A stretch of DNA of 64,000 bases from an uncultured Candidatus Rokubacteria bacterium (GTDB lineage Bacteria > Methylomirabilota > Methylomirabilia > Rokubacteriales > CSP1-6): positions 194,055 through 258,054 of the forward strand of contig CAWIZN010000044.1 of assembly GCA_963840495.1 (NCBI GenBank), written 5' to 3'. The notes below the pieces were generated by a model. That model made no database searches, was not told where the DNA came from, and saw only the letters and a list, made by a program, of their open reading frames with translations. A program made the position numbers and the translations under genes. Below, one piece after another: positions 1 through 64,000 of this stretch; position 1 is the first letter of the stretch, and every line of letters begins with the position of its first letter.

Positions 1-2
1 TC

Positions 3-212
3 GGCCGCGCGGACGGCGATGGCCTCACGAGGCCGCACGCCTTCTGCGTCTTGAAGGACGGCGCGCACGGCGACGACGCGCTGCGGGATGCGCTCCGCGC
101 GACGGTCAAGCAGCGCCTGGCCGGGTACAAGGCCCCGCGCTGGATCGAGTTCGTGGCCGACCTGCCCAAGACCTCGACGGGCAAGATCCAGCGCTTTCGC
201 CTGCGCGAGTGA
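3..212 (+). CDS. AMP-forming acyl/aryl-CoA ligase, C-terminal end (5' part outside window)
   Basis: Translation from position 3 reads ...FCVLKDGAHGDDALRDALRATVKQRLAGYKAPRWIEFVADLPKTSTGKIQRFRLRE, followed by TGA at 210-212. The PKT.(S/T)GKI.R tail is the conserved C-terminal motif of adenylate-forming CoA ligases. Confidence 0.8.
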   Translation, partial: GRADGDGLTRPHAFCVLKDGAHGDDALRDALRATVKQRLAGYKAPRWIEFVADLPKTSTGKIQRFRLRE

Positions 213-221
213 CCCGCTCGT

Positions 222-650
222 TCAGCCGCCGGCGGCCTTCCAGCGCTTCAGCTTGTCCTCGAGGCGGGGCAGGCGCTGCGCGCCGTCGATGATGAAGCGC
301 TCGTGGGTGCCCTTGCCGGCCTCGTCGAGCTCGTCGCGCACCTCGACCCGGAACGCCAGGCGCCGGCGATCGACCTCGGTGAGCTCGACGGTGATGGTCA
401 CCGTCATGCCGACCGGTGTCGCGGCGAGGTGGGCGATGTCCACGCGCGTCCCCACCGTGGTCTGGCCGGGGGCGAGATGGGGCGCCACCGCCTCGATGGC
501 GGTCTGCTCGACGAGCCGGATCATGTCCGGCGTGGACAGGACGCGGATCGGATCCTGGCGCAGATGCGCCGGCGTCAGGTCGTCGGTGACGGTGACCGAT
601 CGGGAATGCCTGAGTCCCGCGGCGAGCGGGCCCTTCGCGCTGTCACTCAT
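222..650 (-). CDS. hotdog-fold thioesterase family protein
   Basis: 142-aa track ORF. The stretch ...RVLSTPDMIRLVEQTAIEAV...GQTTVGTRVDIAHLAATPVGMTVTITVELTEVDRRRLAFRVEVRDE fits the single-hotdog thioesterase (FlK/4HBT-like) pattern from memory. It is convergent with the ligase gene. Confidence 0.7.
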   Translation of the reverse strand: MSDSAKGPLAAGLRHSRSVTVTDDLTPAHLRQDPIRVLSTPDMIRLVEQTAIEAVAPHLAPGQTTVGTRVDIAHLAATPVGMTVTITVELTEVDRRRLAFRVEVRDELDEAGKGTHERFIIDGAQRLPRLEDKLKRWKAAGG

Positions 651-926
651 GACGCAGGACTATGGACGGCTTCCCCGAGCGTGTCAAGCCGCGCCCGCTC
701 CCACCGGCTCACGCATTCTCCGCTTGACAACGCTGGCGCGGTAGCTCGGCGAGTGTCGGCTGCGCTCGGTGGATGCCGGCCCAGCGGCCCGCACGGGCCC
801 GGTGCTTGGCGGCCGGGCAGGCCCGAACGAAAAATCATCGCTCATTCCCGCATCGCCCGTCCTGAGCGCTCCAGGGCGGCTCCGAAACCCGGGTGTAGAG
901 TCGCCTCAGTAGAAGGGAGGCTCGCC

Positions 927-1175
927 ATGGAGATCCACTCGACACCCATCCGCATGACCCTCGGACCCGTCGCGGAACTGGACCGGCTCGGCGATGAGAT
1001 CGCCGAGCTGTCGGCGCATCTCGAGGCCGCCTCCGCCCGCCTCCTCGACCTCATCCGCGAGTTCGATGCCCGCGGCGGCTGGTGTAACGGGTTCCGCTCC
1101 TGCGCCGACTGGCTGGGCTGGCGGATCGGCCTCGACCTCGGCACGGCCCGCGAGAAGAGTCCGCGTGGCGCGCGC
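927..1175 (+). pseudogene. DUF222 / HNH-endonuclease-family N-terminal fragment (relic)
   Basis: ATG at 927, inside track ORF 303..1439: MEIHSTPIRMTLGPVAELDRLGDEIAELSAHLEAASARLLDLIREFDARGGWCNGFRSCADWLGWRIGLDLGTAREK. This is the typical DUF222 N-terminus. Similarity ends near 1155-1175 and no HNH domain follows. Confidence 0.55.
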
Positions 1176-1189
1176 CTGACTGGCGCTGG

Positions 1190-61277: not shown

Positions 61278-61813
61278 CCCCCGGCTCCCGCCGCGTCACC
61301 CGCCCGGTCACCGTATGCGCTGCACGAACCGTGGCGGGCCAGTACTCGCGTGGACGTCGGGGTCGGTGTGTGGGTCAGGCGCTGCCTGCGGGGTGGGATG
61401 CGGCGGTAGAAGAGGAGCTCGCGGGTGCCCTGGGGCAGGTTGTCGATATGCCCGCTCGGCGTGAAGCCGAGGGCCGTGTGCATCCGGATCGACACGCCGT
61501 TGGTCTCCTCCGTCGACGAGAAGAGGCGCGGCGTGGGGGAGATCACCTCGACGGACTTGAAGAACTCCCGCGCGATGCCCTTGCGCCGATACTCCTCGCG
61601 CACCACCACCAGGGTGACGAAGGTGCACTGAAACCAATCGGTGCGGTACGCGAGGAAGCCGACGATCTGGCCGTCGGCCTCGGCGACGACGAGGTGATGC
61701 CGCTCCATGTGCGAGCGGATGAAGGCGCCGGCGCGCTCCTCGCCGATGGCGAGCGCGGCGAGCTCGGCGCATCCCGCGGCATCGGCGATGCGGGGCAGCC
61801 TGACCTCGATCAT
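61199..61813 (-). CDS. GNAT-family N-acetyltransferase (C-terminal ~70 aa probably read-through into repeat B)
   Basis: ATG at 61813: MIEVRLPRIADAAGCAELAALAIGEERAGAFIRSHMERHHLVVAEADGQIVGFLAYRTDWFQCTFVTLVVVREEYRRKGIAREFFKSVE...ALGFTPSG... shows the GNAT motif A, R-x-x-G-x-A. The tail beyond ...LLFYRRI has no family character. Confidence 0.7.
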   Translation of the reverse strand: MIEVRLPRIADAAGCAELAALAIGEERAGAFIRSHMERHHLVVAEADGQIVGFLAYRTDWFQCTFVTLVVVREEYRRKGIAREFFKSVEVISPTPRLFSSTEETNGVSIRMHTALGFTPSGHIDNLPQGTRELLFYRRIPPRRQRLTHTPTPTSTRVLARHGSCSAYGDRAGDAAGAGGMESVRALPLCLRRRHSGRGWERLHG

Positions 61814-61928
61814 GGCGATATCCGGCGGCGGCGCCCCGTCGGGATCGCTCGAGCGAGGCGATGCTCGCCGCTCGAGCGATCCGACACCGGTCACCCCTGC
61901 GATCCGCGAATCTCTCGCGGCGCTCCGA

Positions 61929-62624
61929 TCAATACGTCCCCGGGCGGATCTGCTGGTACAGCGCCTTCAGCTTGTCCGGGGTGAAGTCCTTCGACTGGCA
62001 GAGGGAGATGATCTTCCTCTCGTCGGCCTCGACCTTGGCGATGGCCTCGGGGATCTGGGGGGCGATCTCGTGGGGAATGGTGACGACGCCGTGCTGGTCG
62101 GCGTGGACGAGGTCGCCGGGCTTGATCCAGACGCCGCCGACCTTGACGGGGATGCCGAAGTCGACCATGTGCACGTTGGCGTGCGACACCGAGACGTGGG
62201 CCGCGCAGAACTGGAACTTGAGCGCCCGGACCTCGTCGAGGTCCCGCACGGAGCCGTCGGTGACCACCCCCACGCAGCCGAGGGCGCGGTGGATATTGGC
62301 CTGGACCTCGCCCCACTGGGCCCCCTGGCCGCGCGGCTCGTCGAGGTCGTGGACCACGATCACGCGCGGGGCGGGGATGGTCTGGACGAAGTCCCACCAG
62401 CCATAGGTGCTGGCGCGGTGCCCGTCGATCGGCCCCGCCTCGGCGCGGATGATGGCGGTGACGGCATAGCCCACCATCGGGCCCATCTCGGGGAAGAGCG
62501 CCTTGATGTCGGAGGAGAGGTTGCCCTGCTCGCGCGGCCGCACCTTGAACGTCTCGATGGCATTGGCCACGCTGGGGCTGGTGATCTTCTTGAGCGCGTC
62601 GACCTGCTGGGATGTGAGCGTCAC
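61929..62624 (-). CDS. RraA-family protein (4-hydroxy-4-methyl-2-oxoglutarate aldolase / RNase E inhibitor-like fold)
   Basis: 231-aa intact ORF: ...ITSPSVANAIETFKV...GYAVTAIIRAE...VIVVHDLDEPRGQGAQWGEVQANIHRALGCVGVVTDGSVRDLDEV...PVKVGGVWIKPGDLVHADQHGVVTIP... Confidence 0.8.
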   Translation of the reverse strand: MTLTSQQVDALKKITSPSVANAIETFKVRPREQGNLSSDIKALFPEMGPMVGYAVTAIIRAEAGPIDGHRASTYGWWDFVQTIPAPRVIVVHDLDEPRGQGAQWGEVQANIHRALGCVGVVTDGSVRDLDEVRALKFQFCAAHVSVSHANVHMVDFGIPVKVGGVWIKPGDLVHADQHGVVTIPHEIAPQIPEAIAKVEADERKIISLCQSKDFTPDKLKALYQQIRPGTY

Positions 62625-62660
62625 TGGCGCATCCTCCTTGTTCGGGTGAGACGACGGATG

Positions 62661-63318
62661 CTAGATCGTGCCCTTGCGCTTCTCGACGATGAGGCGCTTG
62701 AGCTGCTCGACGGCGACTTCGACCTGGCGGAGGTTCGGGTTGACCTTGAGGGCGCGCTGGAAGTAGTCGAGGGCGCGCTCGGGCTGATCGAGCTGCACGT
62801 AGATCTGGCCATAGCCGGACAGCACCCCGAAATGGTCGGGGTTGCGCTTGACCACTTCGGCGCAGTCGGCGAGCGACTTCTCGTACTCGCCGACCAGGAA
62901 GTAGATGGTGGCGCGCTTGTTCCACCCCTCGGCGAAGTCGGGCTTCTTCCTGATGATGGCGGTGAAGGTGTCGATGGCGCCCTCGGCTGCGCCCTGGTTC
63001 ATCTGCTCCACGCCCCGCTGGAACAAGGCGTCGACCTCGGGGTCGTCCGCGCGGCTCCACACCTGCCACACCGCGCGCTCGGCCAGGGCGCGCACCCCGT
63101 CGTCCGGATCGCGCAGCGCCCGCAGGAGCGCGGGGGCGTCGGCCATCGACCCCACCTCGCCGAGCCGGATCGCCGCCTGACGCCGGGCCTCGGCGTCGGG
63201 CTTGGCGAGGTCGGCCAGGGCCTGCTCGCGGCTCGGGGCCGGCTTGTCCTGCGCCGTCGCGGCGGCGATCGGAGACAGCGCAATACCAAGGACCAGGGCG
63301 AGCGGTCAGGGCTCTCAT
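62661..63318 (-). pseudogene. secreted HEAT/TPR-repeat protein, frameshift just after the start codon
   Basis: Track ORF 62661..63155 contains TPR repeats (...FAEGWNKRATIYFLVGEYEKSLADCAEVVKRNPDHFGVLSGYGQIYVQLDQPERALDYFQRALKVNP...). The same frame extends upstream to LALVLGIALSPIAAATAQDKPAPSREQALADLAKPDAEARRQAAIRLGEVGS, which is a signal peptide. The ATG at 63318 (MRALT..) is one base out of frame. That start overlaps the ligA stop (ATGA). Confidence 0.7.
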
Positions 63319-64000
63319 GCCCGGCCCACCAGCTTGAGGAAGGCCTCCTCGTCGAGCGTGGGGACGCCGAGGCGCTGGGCGTCGTCGGCCTTGCTGCCCG
63401 CATCCTCGCCCACGACCACGTAGTCCGTCTTCTTCGACACCGAGCCGACCACGCGCCCGCCGAGGCGGATGACGAGATCCTTCGCCTGATCCCGCGTCAG
63501 CGTGCGCAGGCCGCCCGTCAGGACGATGGCCTTGCCGTCCAGCGGCCGCGGCCCCTCGATCGCCCCTTCTTGCCTCATCACGACGCCCGCGCGGCCGAGG
63601 CGGTCGATGGTGTCGCGGTTGTGGGATTCGGCGAAGAAGCGCGTGACCGACTGCGCGATCTGCGGGCCGATGCCGTGGATCTCGTTGATGTCCTGCTCGG
63701 TGGCGGCCAGCAGCTTGTCCATGCTGCCGAAGCGCGAGGCGAGGAGCTGGGCCGCGCGCTCCCCGACCATCCGGATGCCGAGGCCGTTCAGCAGACGCGA
63801 GAGCCCGCGCGTCTTCGAGCCGTCGATCGCCGCCACCAGGTTGCTCGCCGACTTCTCGGCGAGCCGCTCGAGCCCGGCGAGCGCCTCGGCGGTGAGCGCG
63901 TAGAGGTCGGCGAAGTCCTTCACCATGCCCCGGTCCACGAGCTGGCCGATCACGACCTCGCCGAGGTGCTCGATGTCCATGGCCCGCCGCGAGCCGAAGT
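63315..64000 (-). CDS. ligA: NAD-dependent DNA ligase, C-terminal part (HhH + BRCT); 5' part outside window
   Basis: ...[110 protein letters not shown]...[70 protein letters not shown] is the LigA HhH4 and BRCT domains. Confidence 0.9.

Follow-up and report, generated by a model that had tools for sequence, protein, structure and literature searches.

Mass pseudogenization is the hallmark of reductive genome evolution of the Mycobacterium leprae type. When such decay is real, essential genes are spared, nonsense codons, deletions and frameshifts are mixed, codon bias and conservation are eroded, and the lesions are inherited by close relatives. Bacterial mutation is usually held to favor deletions. 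Programmed +1 frameshifting of the prfB type, on the other hand, needs a conserved shift site and concerns only a few genes. Watson and Warr are said to have drawn attention in 2019 to gene-fragmenting indel errors in long-read assemblies. Errors of this kind in Nanopore and PacBio assemblies were described for the Kastor tool, and in one published case fewer than 2000 indels, affecting less than 0.05% of the genome, left 23% of genes pseudogenized (PMC12007338).

Here, we analyzed a window of 64,000 nt from a metagenome-assembled genome of the Methylomirabilota (Rokubacteria; 4.83 Mb, 83 contigs). The assembly resembles those with long-read indel errors in scale, with a few hundredths of a percent of bases apparently wrong (PMC12007338), as well as in having up to a quarter of genes seemingly frameshifted, a lowered marker-gene completeness, lesions that are nearly all 1-nt indels, and close relatives that restore full-length genes. 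In the published Nanopore cases homopolymer deletions dominate, whereas in the present assembly insertions dominate and are not associated with runs. With the M. leprae type it shares many interrupted frames in a genome otherwise of normal size, but none of the traits of real decay (spared essential genes, mixed lesions, eroded codon bias and conservation, inheritance) holds for it. Likewise, a +1 shift is needed for the full protein, as in prfB, but there are approximately 1,000 unrelated sites, without a motif and absent from near-identical strains.

In the deposited window sequence, about 36-38 frame breaks in about 18 genes were found with a codon-usage frame HMM, tblastn, Pfam and joined translations. 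A preliminary description of this DNA had given about 45 breaks in about 22 genes; the breaks are present, but the count is lower. Intact orthologues align split across 22 of them, which are thereby proven: ORFs from the syntenic loci of relatives (among them G004, G012 and G015) matched consecutive window pieces in differing frames in tblastn, with junctions at approximately 3967, 5803, 9890, 14611, 14816, 24736, 25551, 26046, 26813, 29068, 35181, 42557, 45341, 47510, 49148, 52268, 56735, 57159, 57237 and 59707. Pfam searches of joined translations account for about 10 further shifts in an Abhydrolase_10 gene and two in the dnaE2 intein, and joined translations in the HMM frames for two more in phnW and two more in a regulator, these last four being based on the reading in the HMM frames, with Pfam matches only away from the junctions. 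At the previously noted sites 9887, 45338-45341 and 59708, the HMM switches frame exactly there (9886/9887, 45341/45342, 59707/59708), and it also does so at 50445/50446. Split alignments and alignments to relatives gave a +1:-1 ratio of about 20:1, and no genuine internal nonsense codons were found in the window. The SMP-30 gene, earlier counted as broken, has its SMP-30 domain whole in one frame (Pfam), and the intactness of other long genes, noted before, is expected by chance at the observed break rate. The breaks are given below together with their state in four independently assembled sibling contigs (L105-L108), which are 96-98% identical to the window (92.7% in one 1-kb non-coding stretch).

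1697/1698 and 2045/2046, plus strand: truncated AAA_16/TPR regulator; two +1 switches (frame HMM); the joined translation continues through both and has an AAA_16 match.
3964..3975 (split near 3967), plus strand: biotin-carboxylase paralogue 'accC'; +1; HSPs in frames +2/+3 against G015, G012 and G004, with one extra base in the MAFFT alignment; L105 has an intact 501-aa gene, L107 the window's length.
5803, plus strand: glnQ-like ABC ATPase; extra C, GCG[C]GAG; split HSPs and alignment; L105 and L107 without the base.
9887..9890, plus strand: DUF898 gene; +1, the extra base being the C at 9890, after GGG; L105, L106 and L107 all read GGG-GCGG, so the GGG run is common to the siblings.
14611, plus strand: rhamnulose-1-phosphate aldolase/SDR fusion; extra G; split HSPs; L105, L106 and L107 without the base.
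14816, plus strand: second break of the aldolase/SDR fusion; extra C; L105 and L106 without the base, L107 in frame via a nearby variant.
20923..22998, plus strand: Abhydrolase_10 gene, a probable error hot spot; about 10 switches, nearly all +1, and about 10 HMM pieces; the joined translation gives one Pfam alignment (residues 274-641, model 145-429/429) across many junctions.
24736, plus strand: imuB; extra G; HSPs split between frames +2/+3; L105 and L106 without the base.
25549..25551, plus strand: dnaE2; extra base private to the window; split HSPs and sibling comparison.
26046, plus strand: dnaE2; extra G, also in L106 but not in L105.
26812..26813, plus strand: dnaE2; extra base private to the window; split HSPs and sibling comparison.
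27336..28598, plus strand: dnaE2 intein with LAGLIDADG endonuclease, read in three frames; +1 shifts near 27830 and 28400; in Pfam, the N part of Intein_splicing falls in frame +3, LAGLIDADG_3 in frame +1 and the C part of Intein_splicing in frame +2.
29068, plus strand: dnaE2; -1; a C missing from a run, C4 in the window vs C5 in the siblings.
35181..35182, plus strand: gene 34469-35450; +1; HSPs with the G015 orthologue are split, and their query coordinates follow on directly (240/240).
36987/8 (-1) and 37104/5 (+1), plus strand: phnW-like class-V aminotransferase; HMM switches; the joined translation gives a continuous N-terminus, with an Aminotran_5 match downstream.
42557..42565, plus strand: dppD-like ATPase; +1; extra C relative to three relatives.
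45338..45345, plus strand: SBP_bac_5 gene; +1; split HSPs and alignment; a G4 run is a possible location.
47506..47518 (split near 47510), plus strand: dppC-like permease; +1; split HSPs and alignment.
49148, plus strand: thiolase; extra G; L108 without the base and with an intact 365-aa gene.
50445..50462, plus strand: CoA-transferase N-terminus; candidate +1, with the start codon in frame +3 and the conserved body in frame +1; L108 of equal length.
52257..52271, minus strand: ggt; +1; the extra base at 52268 is not in L108.
56735, 57159 and 57237, minus strand: molybdopterin oxidoreductase; three +1; L108 without all three and with an intact 706-aa ORF.
59707, plus strand: fumarase-type hydro-lyase alpha subunit; extra C; L108 without the C and with an intact 318-aa gene; the adjoining GGG run is also present in L108.

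The window also holds an N-terminal hydrolase fragment (8771-8968) and an 82-nt copy of dnaE2 (30760-30838). Both had been described as true relics; they are of the rearrangement type, are a separate matter from the indel breaks, and may be real.

At 13 of 15 +1 sites with sibling coverage, the base that is extra in the window is absent from the siblings (5803, 9890, 14611, 14816, 24736, 25551, 26813, 49148, 52268, 56735, 57159, 57237, 59707), and the base missing from the window at 29068 is present in them. Each sibling has private 1-nt indels of its own that break other genes, and intact 686-aa proteins 97-99% identical to the corrected reading of the aldolase/SDR fusion are found in other assemblies. 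As regards inheritance, most breaks occur in a single assembly of these 96-98% identical strains, with three cases shared between the window and one sibling each: 26046 (L106), approximately 3970 (L107) and approximately 50459 (L108). At G 26046, the window and L106 are on a common local haplotype, and a C at 26148 is common to L105 and L106. The CoA-transferase break proposed near the cccc at 50459-50462 is plausible, although the equal length of L108 leaves it among the shared cases.

Across the whole assembly, 1,573 stop-less same-strand frame switches were counted (3.26 per 10 kb), at least one of them a +1 switch in 82 of the 83 contigs. By the same measure, the relatives G028 and G004 had 0.5 and 0.25 per 10 kb, and the syntenic loci of relatives 0.13-1.26. 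Switches of +1 outnumbered those of -1 by 1186 to 387 (about 3.6 in every 4.6), and by 21 to 2 in a comparison with 132 orthologues of G004, with 19 of these genes broken in the present assembly. In 141 kb of orthologues there were no genuine internal stops, vs 23 frameshifts. Essential genes are included: rpoB falls into two pieces at model position 387 but is intact in G004 and G012, and these two pieces are its only match in the assembly. Splits are also present in rplL, rplD, rplX, rpsH, rpmD and tuf copy 2, with single full-length Pfam domains across the junctions, and no second copies of the five broken ribosomal-protein genes were found in the assembly. With 8 breaks in 33 kb, the ribosomal operon region is at the genome average. 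The two tuf copies are 99% identical, and tuf2 has two insertions outside runs relative to tuf1. Identity to orthologues did not differ significantly between broken and intact genes (72.1 vs 75.0%, p = 0.13). Broken genes were longer (491 vs 349 aa), as random hits predict. Break density was over-dispersed (variance-to-mean ratio of 2.0 in 5-kb bins). Completeness was 79.7%, vs 95-100% in relatives of similar size.

The preliminary description called the breaks typical of homopolymer sequencing or assembly error and placed several of them in G/C runs. Descriptively this is true, but about 60% of random coding positions have a G/C run of 3-4 no more than 12 nt away. When indel positions were compared statistically with homopolymer context, 14.2% of +1 sites had a run of at least 4 within that distance, vs 16.7% of random coding positions. 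At 19 of 36 pinned sites the extra base has a run length of 1 and cannot belong to a run, as is the case for six of the six window breaks compared with L108. On these grounds, miscalling of homopolymer length is not supported for the dominant +1 class. Only the rarer -1 sites favor runs of at least 5 (8.5% vs 3.5%); this minority class alone is run-associated, as in the event at 29068. Two of the runs named as lesions, ggg at 9887-9889 and ggg at 59708-59710, are shared with intact siblings; what is extra in the window is the C next to them. The gggg at 45338-45341 is a possible position of the +1 in the SBP_bac_5 gene, the sole pinned site for which this can be said. The lack of homopolymer association among the insertions is unlike the classical long-read/454 signature and counts against an explanation by consensus error, as do the three breaks shared with a sibling and the over-dispersed break density.

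Could the genes truly have been inactivated by frameshift mutations in the course of genome decay? The breaks do stand in the deposited sequence, rearrangement-type relics (the hydrolase at 8771-8968 and the 82-nt dnaE2 copy) lie nearby, and three breaks are common to a sibling assembly. Nevertheless, genuine pseudogenization is highly improbable given that breaks hit rpoB and five ribosomal protein genes present in single copy at a rate equal to the genome average, that nonsense codons are lacking in both the orthologues and the window, that insertions are in strong excess, that conservation is not relaxed in broken genes, and that near-identical strains keep these genes intact and have other genes broken. 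Alternatively, the extra bases might be real and tolerated through programmed +1 frameshifting, quadruplet decoding or transcript editing, a reading that would fit the strong +1 predominance and the continuation of coding signal and homology past every break. Recoding is scarcely credible, however, and already close to refuted: the sites have no common motif (the most frequent 4-mer reaches 14%, vs 9% in the background) and, by definition of the class counted, no stop; they are unconserved, being absent from relatives, and 96-98% identical strains have plain open frames without the extra base; and tuf1 has none of the insertions of tuf2.

A mixed case, in which most breaks are errors and a minority are real frameshift alleles segregating within the population, has the sibling-shared breaks as its candidates. 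In its favor are the G at 26046 on a local haplotype common to the window and L106, the C at 26148 in both L105 and L106, the equal length of the 'accC' break in the window and L107 when L105 has an intact gene, and the CoA-transferase N-terminus of identical length in L108. Conversely, context-dependent systematic consensus errors would recur on one haplotype too, all these assemblies are demonstrably error-rich, and most tested breaks (13 of 15 +1 sites and the -1 at 29068) were seen in the window alone. We consider the mixed case unlikely. The three shared breaks could be real alleles or systematic errors; there is some small chance that these few (at 26046 in dnaE2, around 3970 in the biotin carboxylase and around 50459 in the CoA-transferase) are genuine segregating alleles or, alternatively, context-specific miscall sites, for example at a modified base.

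Taken together, the breaks in the window are very probably consensus errors of the assembly and not mutations of the organism, with almost all of them appearing from sequence comparison to be spurious extra bases from an error-prone metagenome assembly. The earlier suspicion of artefact rather than inactivation is strongly supported: breaks are spread over the genome, essential genes present in single copy are among those hit, nonsense codons are lacking, and near-identical independent assemblies do not have the extra bases. The consensus would carry some 1,300 spurious single-base indels, mostly extra bases and spaced at about 3-4 kb, each of which would throw a conserved and otherwise normal gene out of frame. 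The cause may lie in error-prone data, probably long-read, that had low coverage or poor polishing, and local variation in error density would produce hot spots. On this reading, the genes should not be taken as inactivated.

For users of this genome, at least one gene in 7 (19/132 orthologues compared) will be wrongly annotated as a split gene or pseudogene, and the share will be higher where errors cluster, as in the window; the completeness estimate of 79.7% is probably too low. A further practical caution comes from the bias toward insertions outside homopolymers: polishing or filtering directed only at homopolymers would overlook most errors. Claims of lost functions (accC, ABC transporters, the mutasome, ggt) are unsafe until the assembly is re-polished. 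As to whether intact second copies of accC exist elsewhere, a question raised in the preliminary description, the assembly contains four biotin-carboxylase paralogues including the window's 'accC', and two of the four are intact. Were the shared breaks context-specific miscalls at a modified base, the sites would reveal a methylation motif; were they true alleles, the imuA-imuB-dnaE2 mutasome would be naturally inactivated in some strains.

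Reading frames were followed with a codon-usage model trained on the long ORFs of the source assembly (GCA_963840495.1; G000) and run as a seven-state frame HMM, a switch being counted where the frame changed on the same strand without a stop nearby. Within the window (G000:C44:194055-258054) this gave dozens of direct same-strand frame switches, and four of these coincide with the sites pinned in the preliminary description (9886/7, 45341/2, 59707/8, and 50445/6). Orthologues were taken from syntenic loci of the family-level relatives G015, G004, G012, G013, and G005, with DNA identity of 70-85%; no same-genus relative of G000 was present among the species genomes compared. 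Close protein matches bear names that put G000 in Methylomirabilota / 'Rokubacteria'. The relatives' ORFs match the window as successive pieces in differing frames whose query coordinates are contiguous, which proves the breaks in the genes listed here. In MAFFT alignments against the relatives, the window has a single surplus base at nearly all junctions.

Window genes with breaks proven by split orthologue alignment
Biotin carboxylase: break
glnQ-like ATPase: break
DUF898 gene: break
Aldolase/SDR gene: two breaks
imuB: break
dnaE2: four breaks
Gene at 34469-35450: break
dppD-like gene: break
dppC-like gene: break
SBP_bac_5 gene: break
Thiolase: break
ggt: break
Mo-oxidoreductase: three breaks
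Hydro-lyase alpha subunit: break

Pfam searches of joined translations revealed about 10 further shifts in one Abhydrolase_10 gene, and joined translations together with HMM frames added two in phnW and two in a regulator gene, where Pfam matches lie only away from the junctions. The breaks reported earlier are thus present, but their total is about 36-38 in about 18 genes rather than about 45 in about 22. The SMP-30 gene had been counted among the broken genes, but its SMP-30 domain is intact in the window. A break in the CoA-transferase near 50459 is plausible.

Four independently assembled sibling contigs carry counterparts of the aldolase/SDR gene or its neighbours. L105-L107 are metagenome contigs from ENA, named in the style of Flye, and L108 is a 623-kb JGI contig; they are 96-98% identical to the window, falling to 92.7% in one 1-kb non-coding stretch. 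Siblings lack the window's surplus base at 5803, 9890, 14611, 14816, 24736, 25551, 26813, 49148, 52268, 56735, 57159, 57237, and 59707, and at 29068 they have the base that is missing from the window. Other genes are interrupted in every sibling by 1-nt indels private to it; L108 has a split CoA-transferase gene, SMP-30 gene, and ligA but intact genes for the thiolase, Mo-oxidoreductase, and fumarase alpha. Near-identical strains in which different genes are broken, essential and non-essential alike, are the prediction of random consensus error; inherited pseudogenes would not give differing sets of broken genes among such strains. Some breaks are shared. Three of the window's breaks each recur in one sibling: a G at 26046 in L106, the biotin-carboxylase break near 3970 in L107 (the L105 gene is intact, at 501 aa), and the CoA-transferase N-terminus near 50459 in L108. 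A surplus C at 26148 occurs in L105 and L106, not in the window. Shared breaks may be context-dependent errors that recur on the same haplotype, or they may be real alleles.

Across G000 as a whole (4.83 Mb in 83 contigs, the shortest 13.8 kb; G+C 69.8%; estimated completeness 79.7%, contamination 3.2%), the frame HMM counted 1,573 switches on the same strand with no stop close by, or 3.26 per 10 kb, and at least one stop-less switch to an extra base (+1) occurs on 82 of the 83 contigs. The window is not exceptional within G000. By the same method, 400 kb of a near-finished relative (G028) gave 0.5 per 10 kb, 360 kb of G004 gave 0.25, and the relatives' syntenic loci gave 0.13-1.26. The switches are strongly directional, with 1,186 of +1 type vs. 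387 in which one base is missing (-1); at ordinary gene boundaries the bias runs the other way, in G000 and the control alike. Among 132 G004 orthologues sampled by homology (141 kb), 23 frameshifts were found in 19 genes, 21 of them +1. Switch density is over-dispersed (variance-to-mean ratio 2.0), reaching 13 switches per 5 kb in hot spots, and correlates weakly with G+C (r = 0.13). An effect of contig ends was absent, the density being 2.8-3.3 per 10 kb at every distance from the ends of G000 contigs.

Error in G/C homopolymers had been the suspected mechanism. Statistically this did not hold for the +1 sites: 14.2% of them have a run of at least 4 within 12 nt, vs. 16.7% of random coding positions, and for a run of at least 5 at that distance the values are 3.3% vs. 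3.5%. When sites were pinned by scoring each single-base removal against the orthologue, the surplus base must have run length 1 at 19 of the 36 sites so pinned, and at just one site could it be in a run of 4. The surplus base likewise has run length 1 in all six window sites compared with L108. The GGG runs at 9887-9889 and 59708-59710, earlier taken as the lesions, are also GGG in the intact siblings, and the surplus base is the adjoining C. Homopolymer enrichment was therefore rejected for +1 sites on both the run statistics and the pinned sites. Enrichment near runs of at least 5 is seen for the less common -1 events (8.5% vs. 3.5%), and the one clear -1 break in the window, at 29068, is a reduction from C5 to C4. 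The dominant error class is insertion-biased and non-homopolymer. No shared sequence motif or quadruplet codon was found at the shift sites, and this lack of a common motif speaks against explaining the breaks by programmed frameshifting or by quadruplet decoding.

Six observations favour error over real mutation as the source of the G000 breaks. Breaks are as frequent in essential single-copy genes as in the genome on average. In rpoB, which is intact in G004 and G012, the split is at model position 387, and a search of G000 matched only the two rpoB pieces; the best intact matches elsewhere, searched with residues 250-650, were just 92-93% identical, and no intact rpoB of the same species was found. 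Also split are tuf copy 2 and rplL, rplD, rplX, rpsH, and rpmD, in which joined readings give full-length Pfam domains across the junctions; each of these five ribosomal-protein genes is present only once in the G000 assembly. The two tuf copies (G000:C60:32601-33812 and 48626-49824) are 99% identical, and copy 2 has two single-base insertions, 25 nt apart and adjoining a T-to-C difference, that are absent from copy 1; runs up to G7 are the same in both. Neither the 141-kb orthologue sample nor the window contains a genuine internal nonsense codon; each stop that seemed internal is located upstream of a start, at a natural end, or in a spurious frame, and four such in-frame stops in the sample were rejected because they fall at HSP ends or outside the actual coding range. 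Broken and intact genes do not differ significantly in similarity to their orthologues (72.1% vs. 75.0%, p = 0.13), and the broken ones are longer, as expected of random hits. The frame-corrected aldolase/SDR gene has intact 686-aa counterparts in other public assemblies at 97-99% identity. The earlier suspicion of an artefact was thus right, given broken essential genes, no nonsense codons, and near-identical siblings without the extra bases.

Other elements lie among these genes. An 850-nt dnaE2 'insertion', considered as non-coding DNA or an IS element, was rejected as either, being an intein; the window has the full element, with a LAGLIDADG homing endonuclease, at 27336-28598. The site is empty in L106, and in L105 it holds a mini-intein (about 137 aa) that lacks the endonuclease. 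The relative G012 likewise has a mini-intein there, and no intein is present in G004 or G015. From sequence comparison, these states look like a snapshot of the homing cycle within one population. A segment within dnaE2 (28681-28762) recurs at 89% identity as an 82-nt copy about 1.3 kb downstream of dnaE2, at 30760-30838, which accounts for the dnaE2 relic noted previously. The window 'accC' (3425-4928) is 78-80% identical to its G015 orthologue. A check for intact accC copies elsewhere found it to be one of four biotin-carboxylase paralogues in G000; those on contigs C74 and C61 are intact, and that on C76 is also split, in two frames. At 11460-11545 lies a repeat of about 80 nt, probably a REP- or MITE-like element, that is dispersed in more than 40 copies across G000 contigs (80-92% identical). 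Another element, intergenic and about 115 nt long (16842-16966), has many copies in G015 and G005, relatives at family level (84-90% identity), and is therefore conserved across genera. Upstream of the DUF222 fragment, about 200 nt of non-coding sequence (714-920, within 600-920) recurs on four other G000 contigs at 77-82% identity. The orphan hydrolase N-terminal fragment at 8771-8968 (67 of 276 residues), in a 420-nt stretch missing from the G015 syntenic locus, is a rearrangement-type relic unrelated to the 1-nt errors.

The scale of errors in G000 matches that of published long-read artefacts; in one such assembly fewer than 2000 indels, affecting less than 0.05% of bases, led to 23% of genes being called pseudogenes and lowered marker completeness (PMC12007338). 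A Nanopore-only catalogue of soil MAGs, assembled with Flye and one Medaka round, used polishing to cut indel errors and checked its MAGs for them (PMC12313526). The breaks are real in the sequence, but they are not a biological feature, and the main value of the finding is as a warning to annotators of G000.
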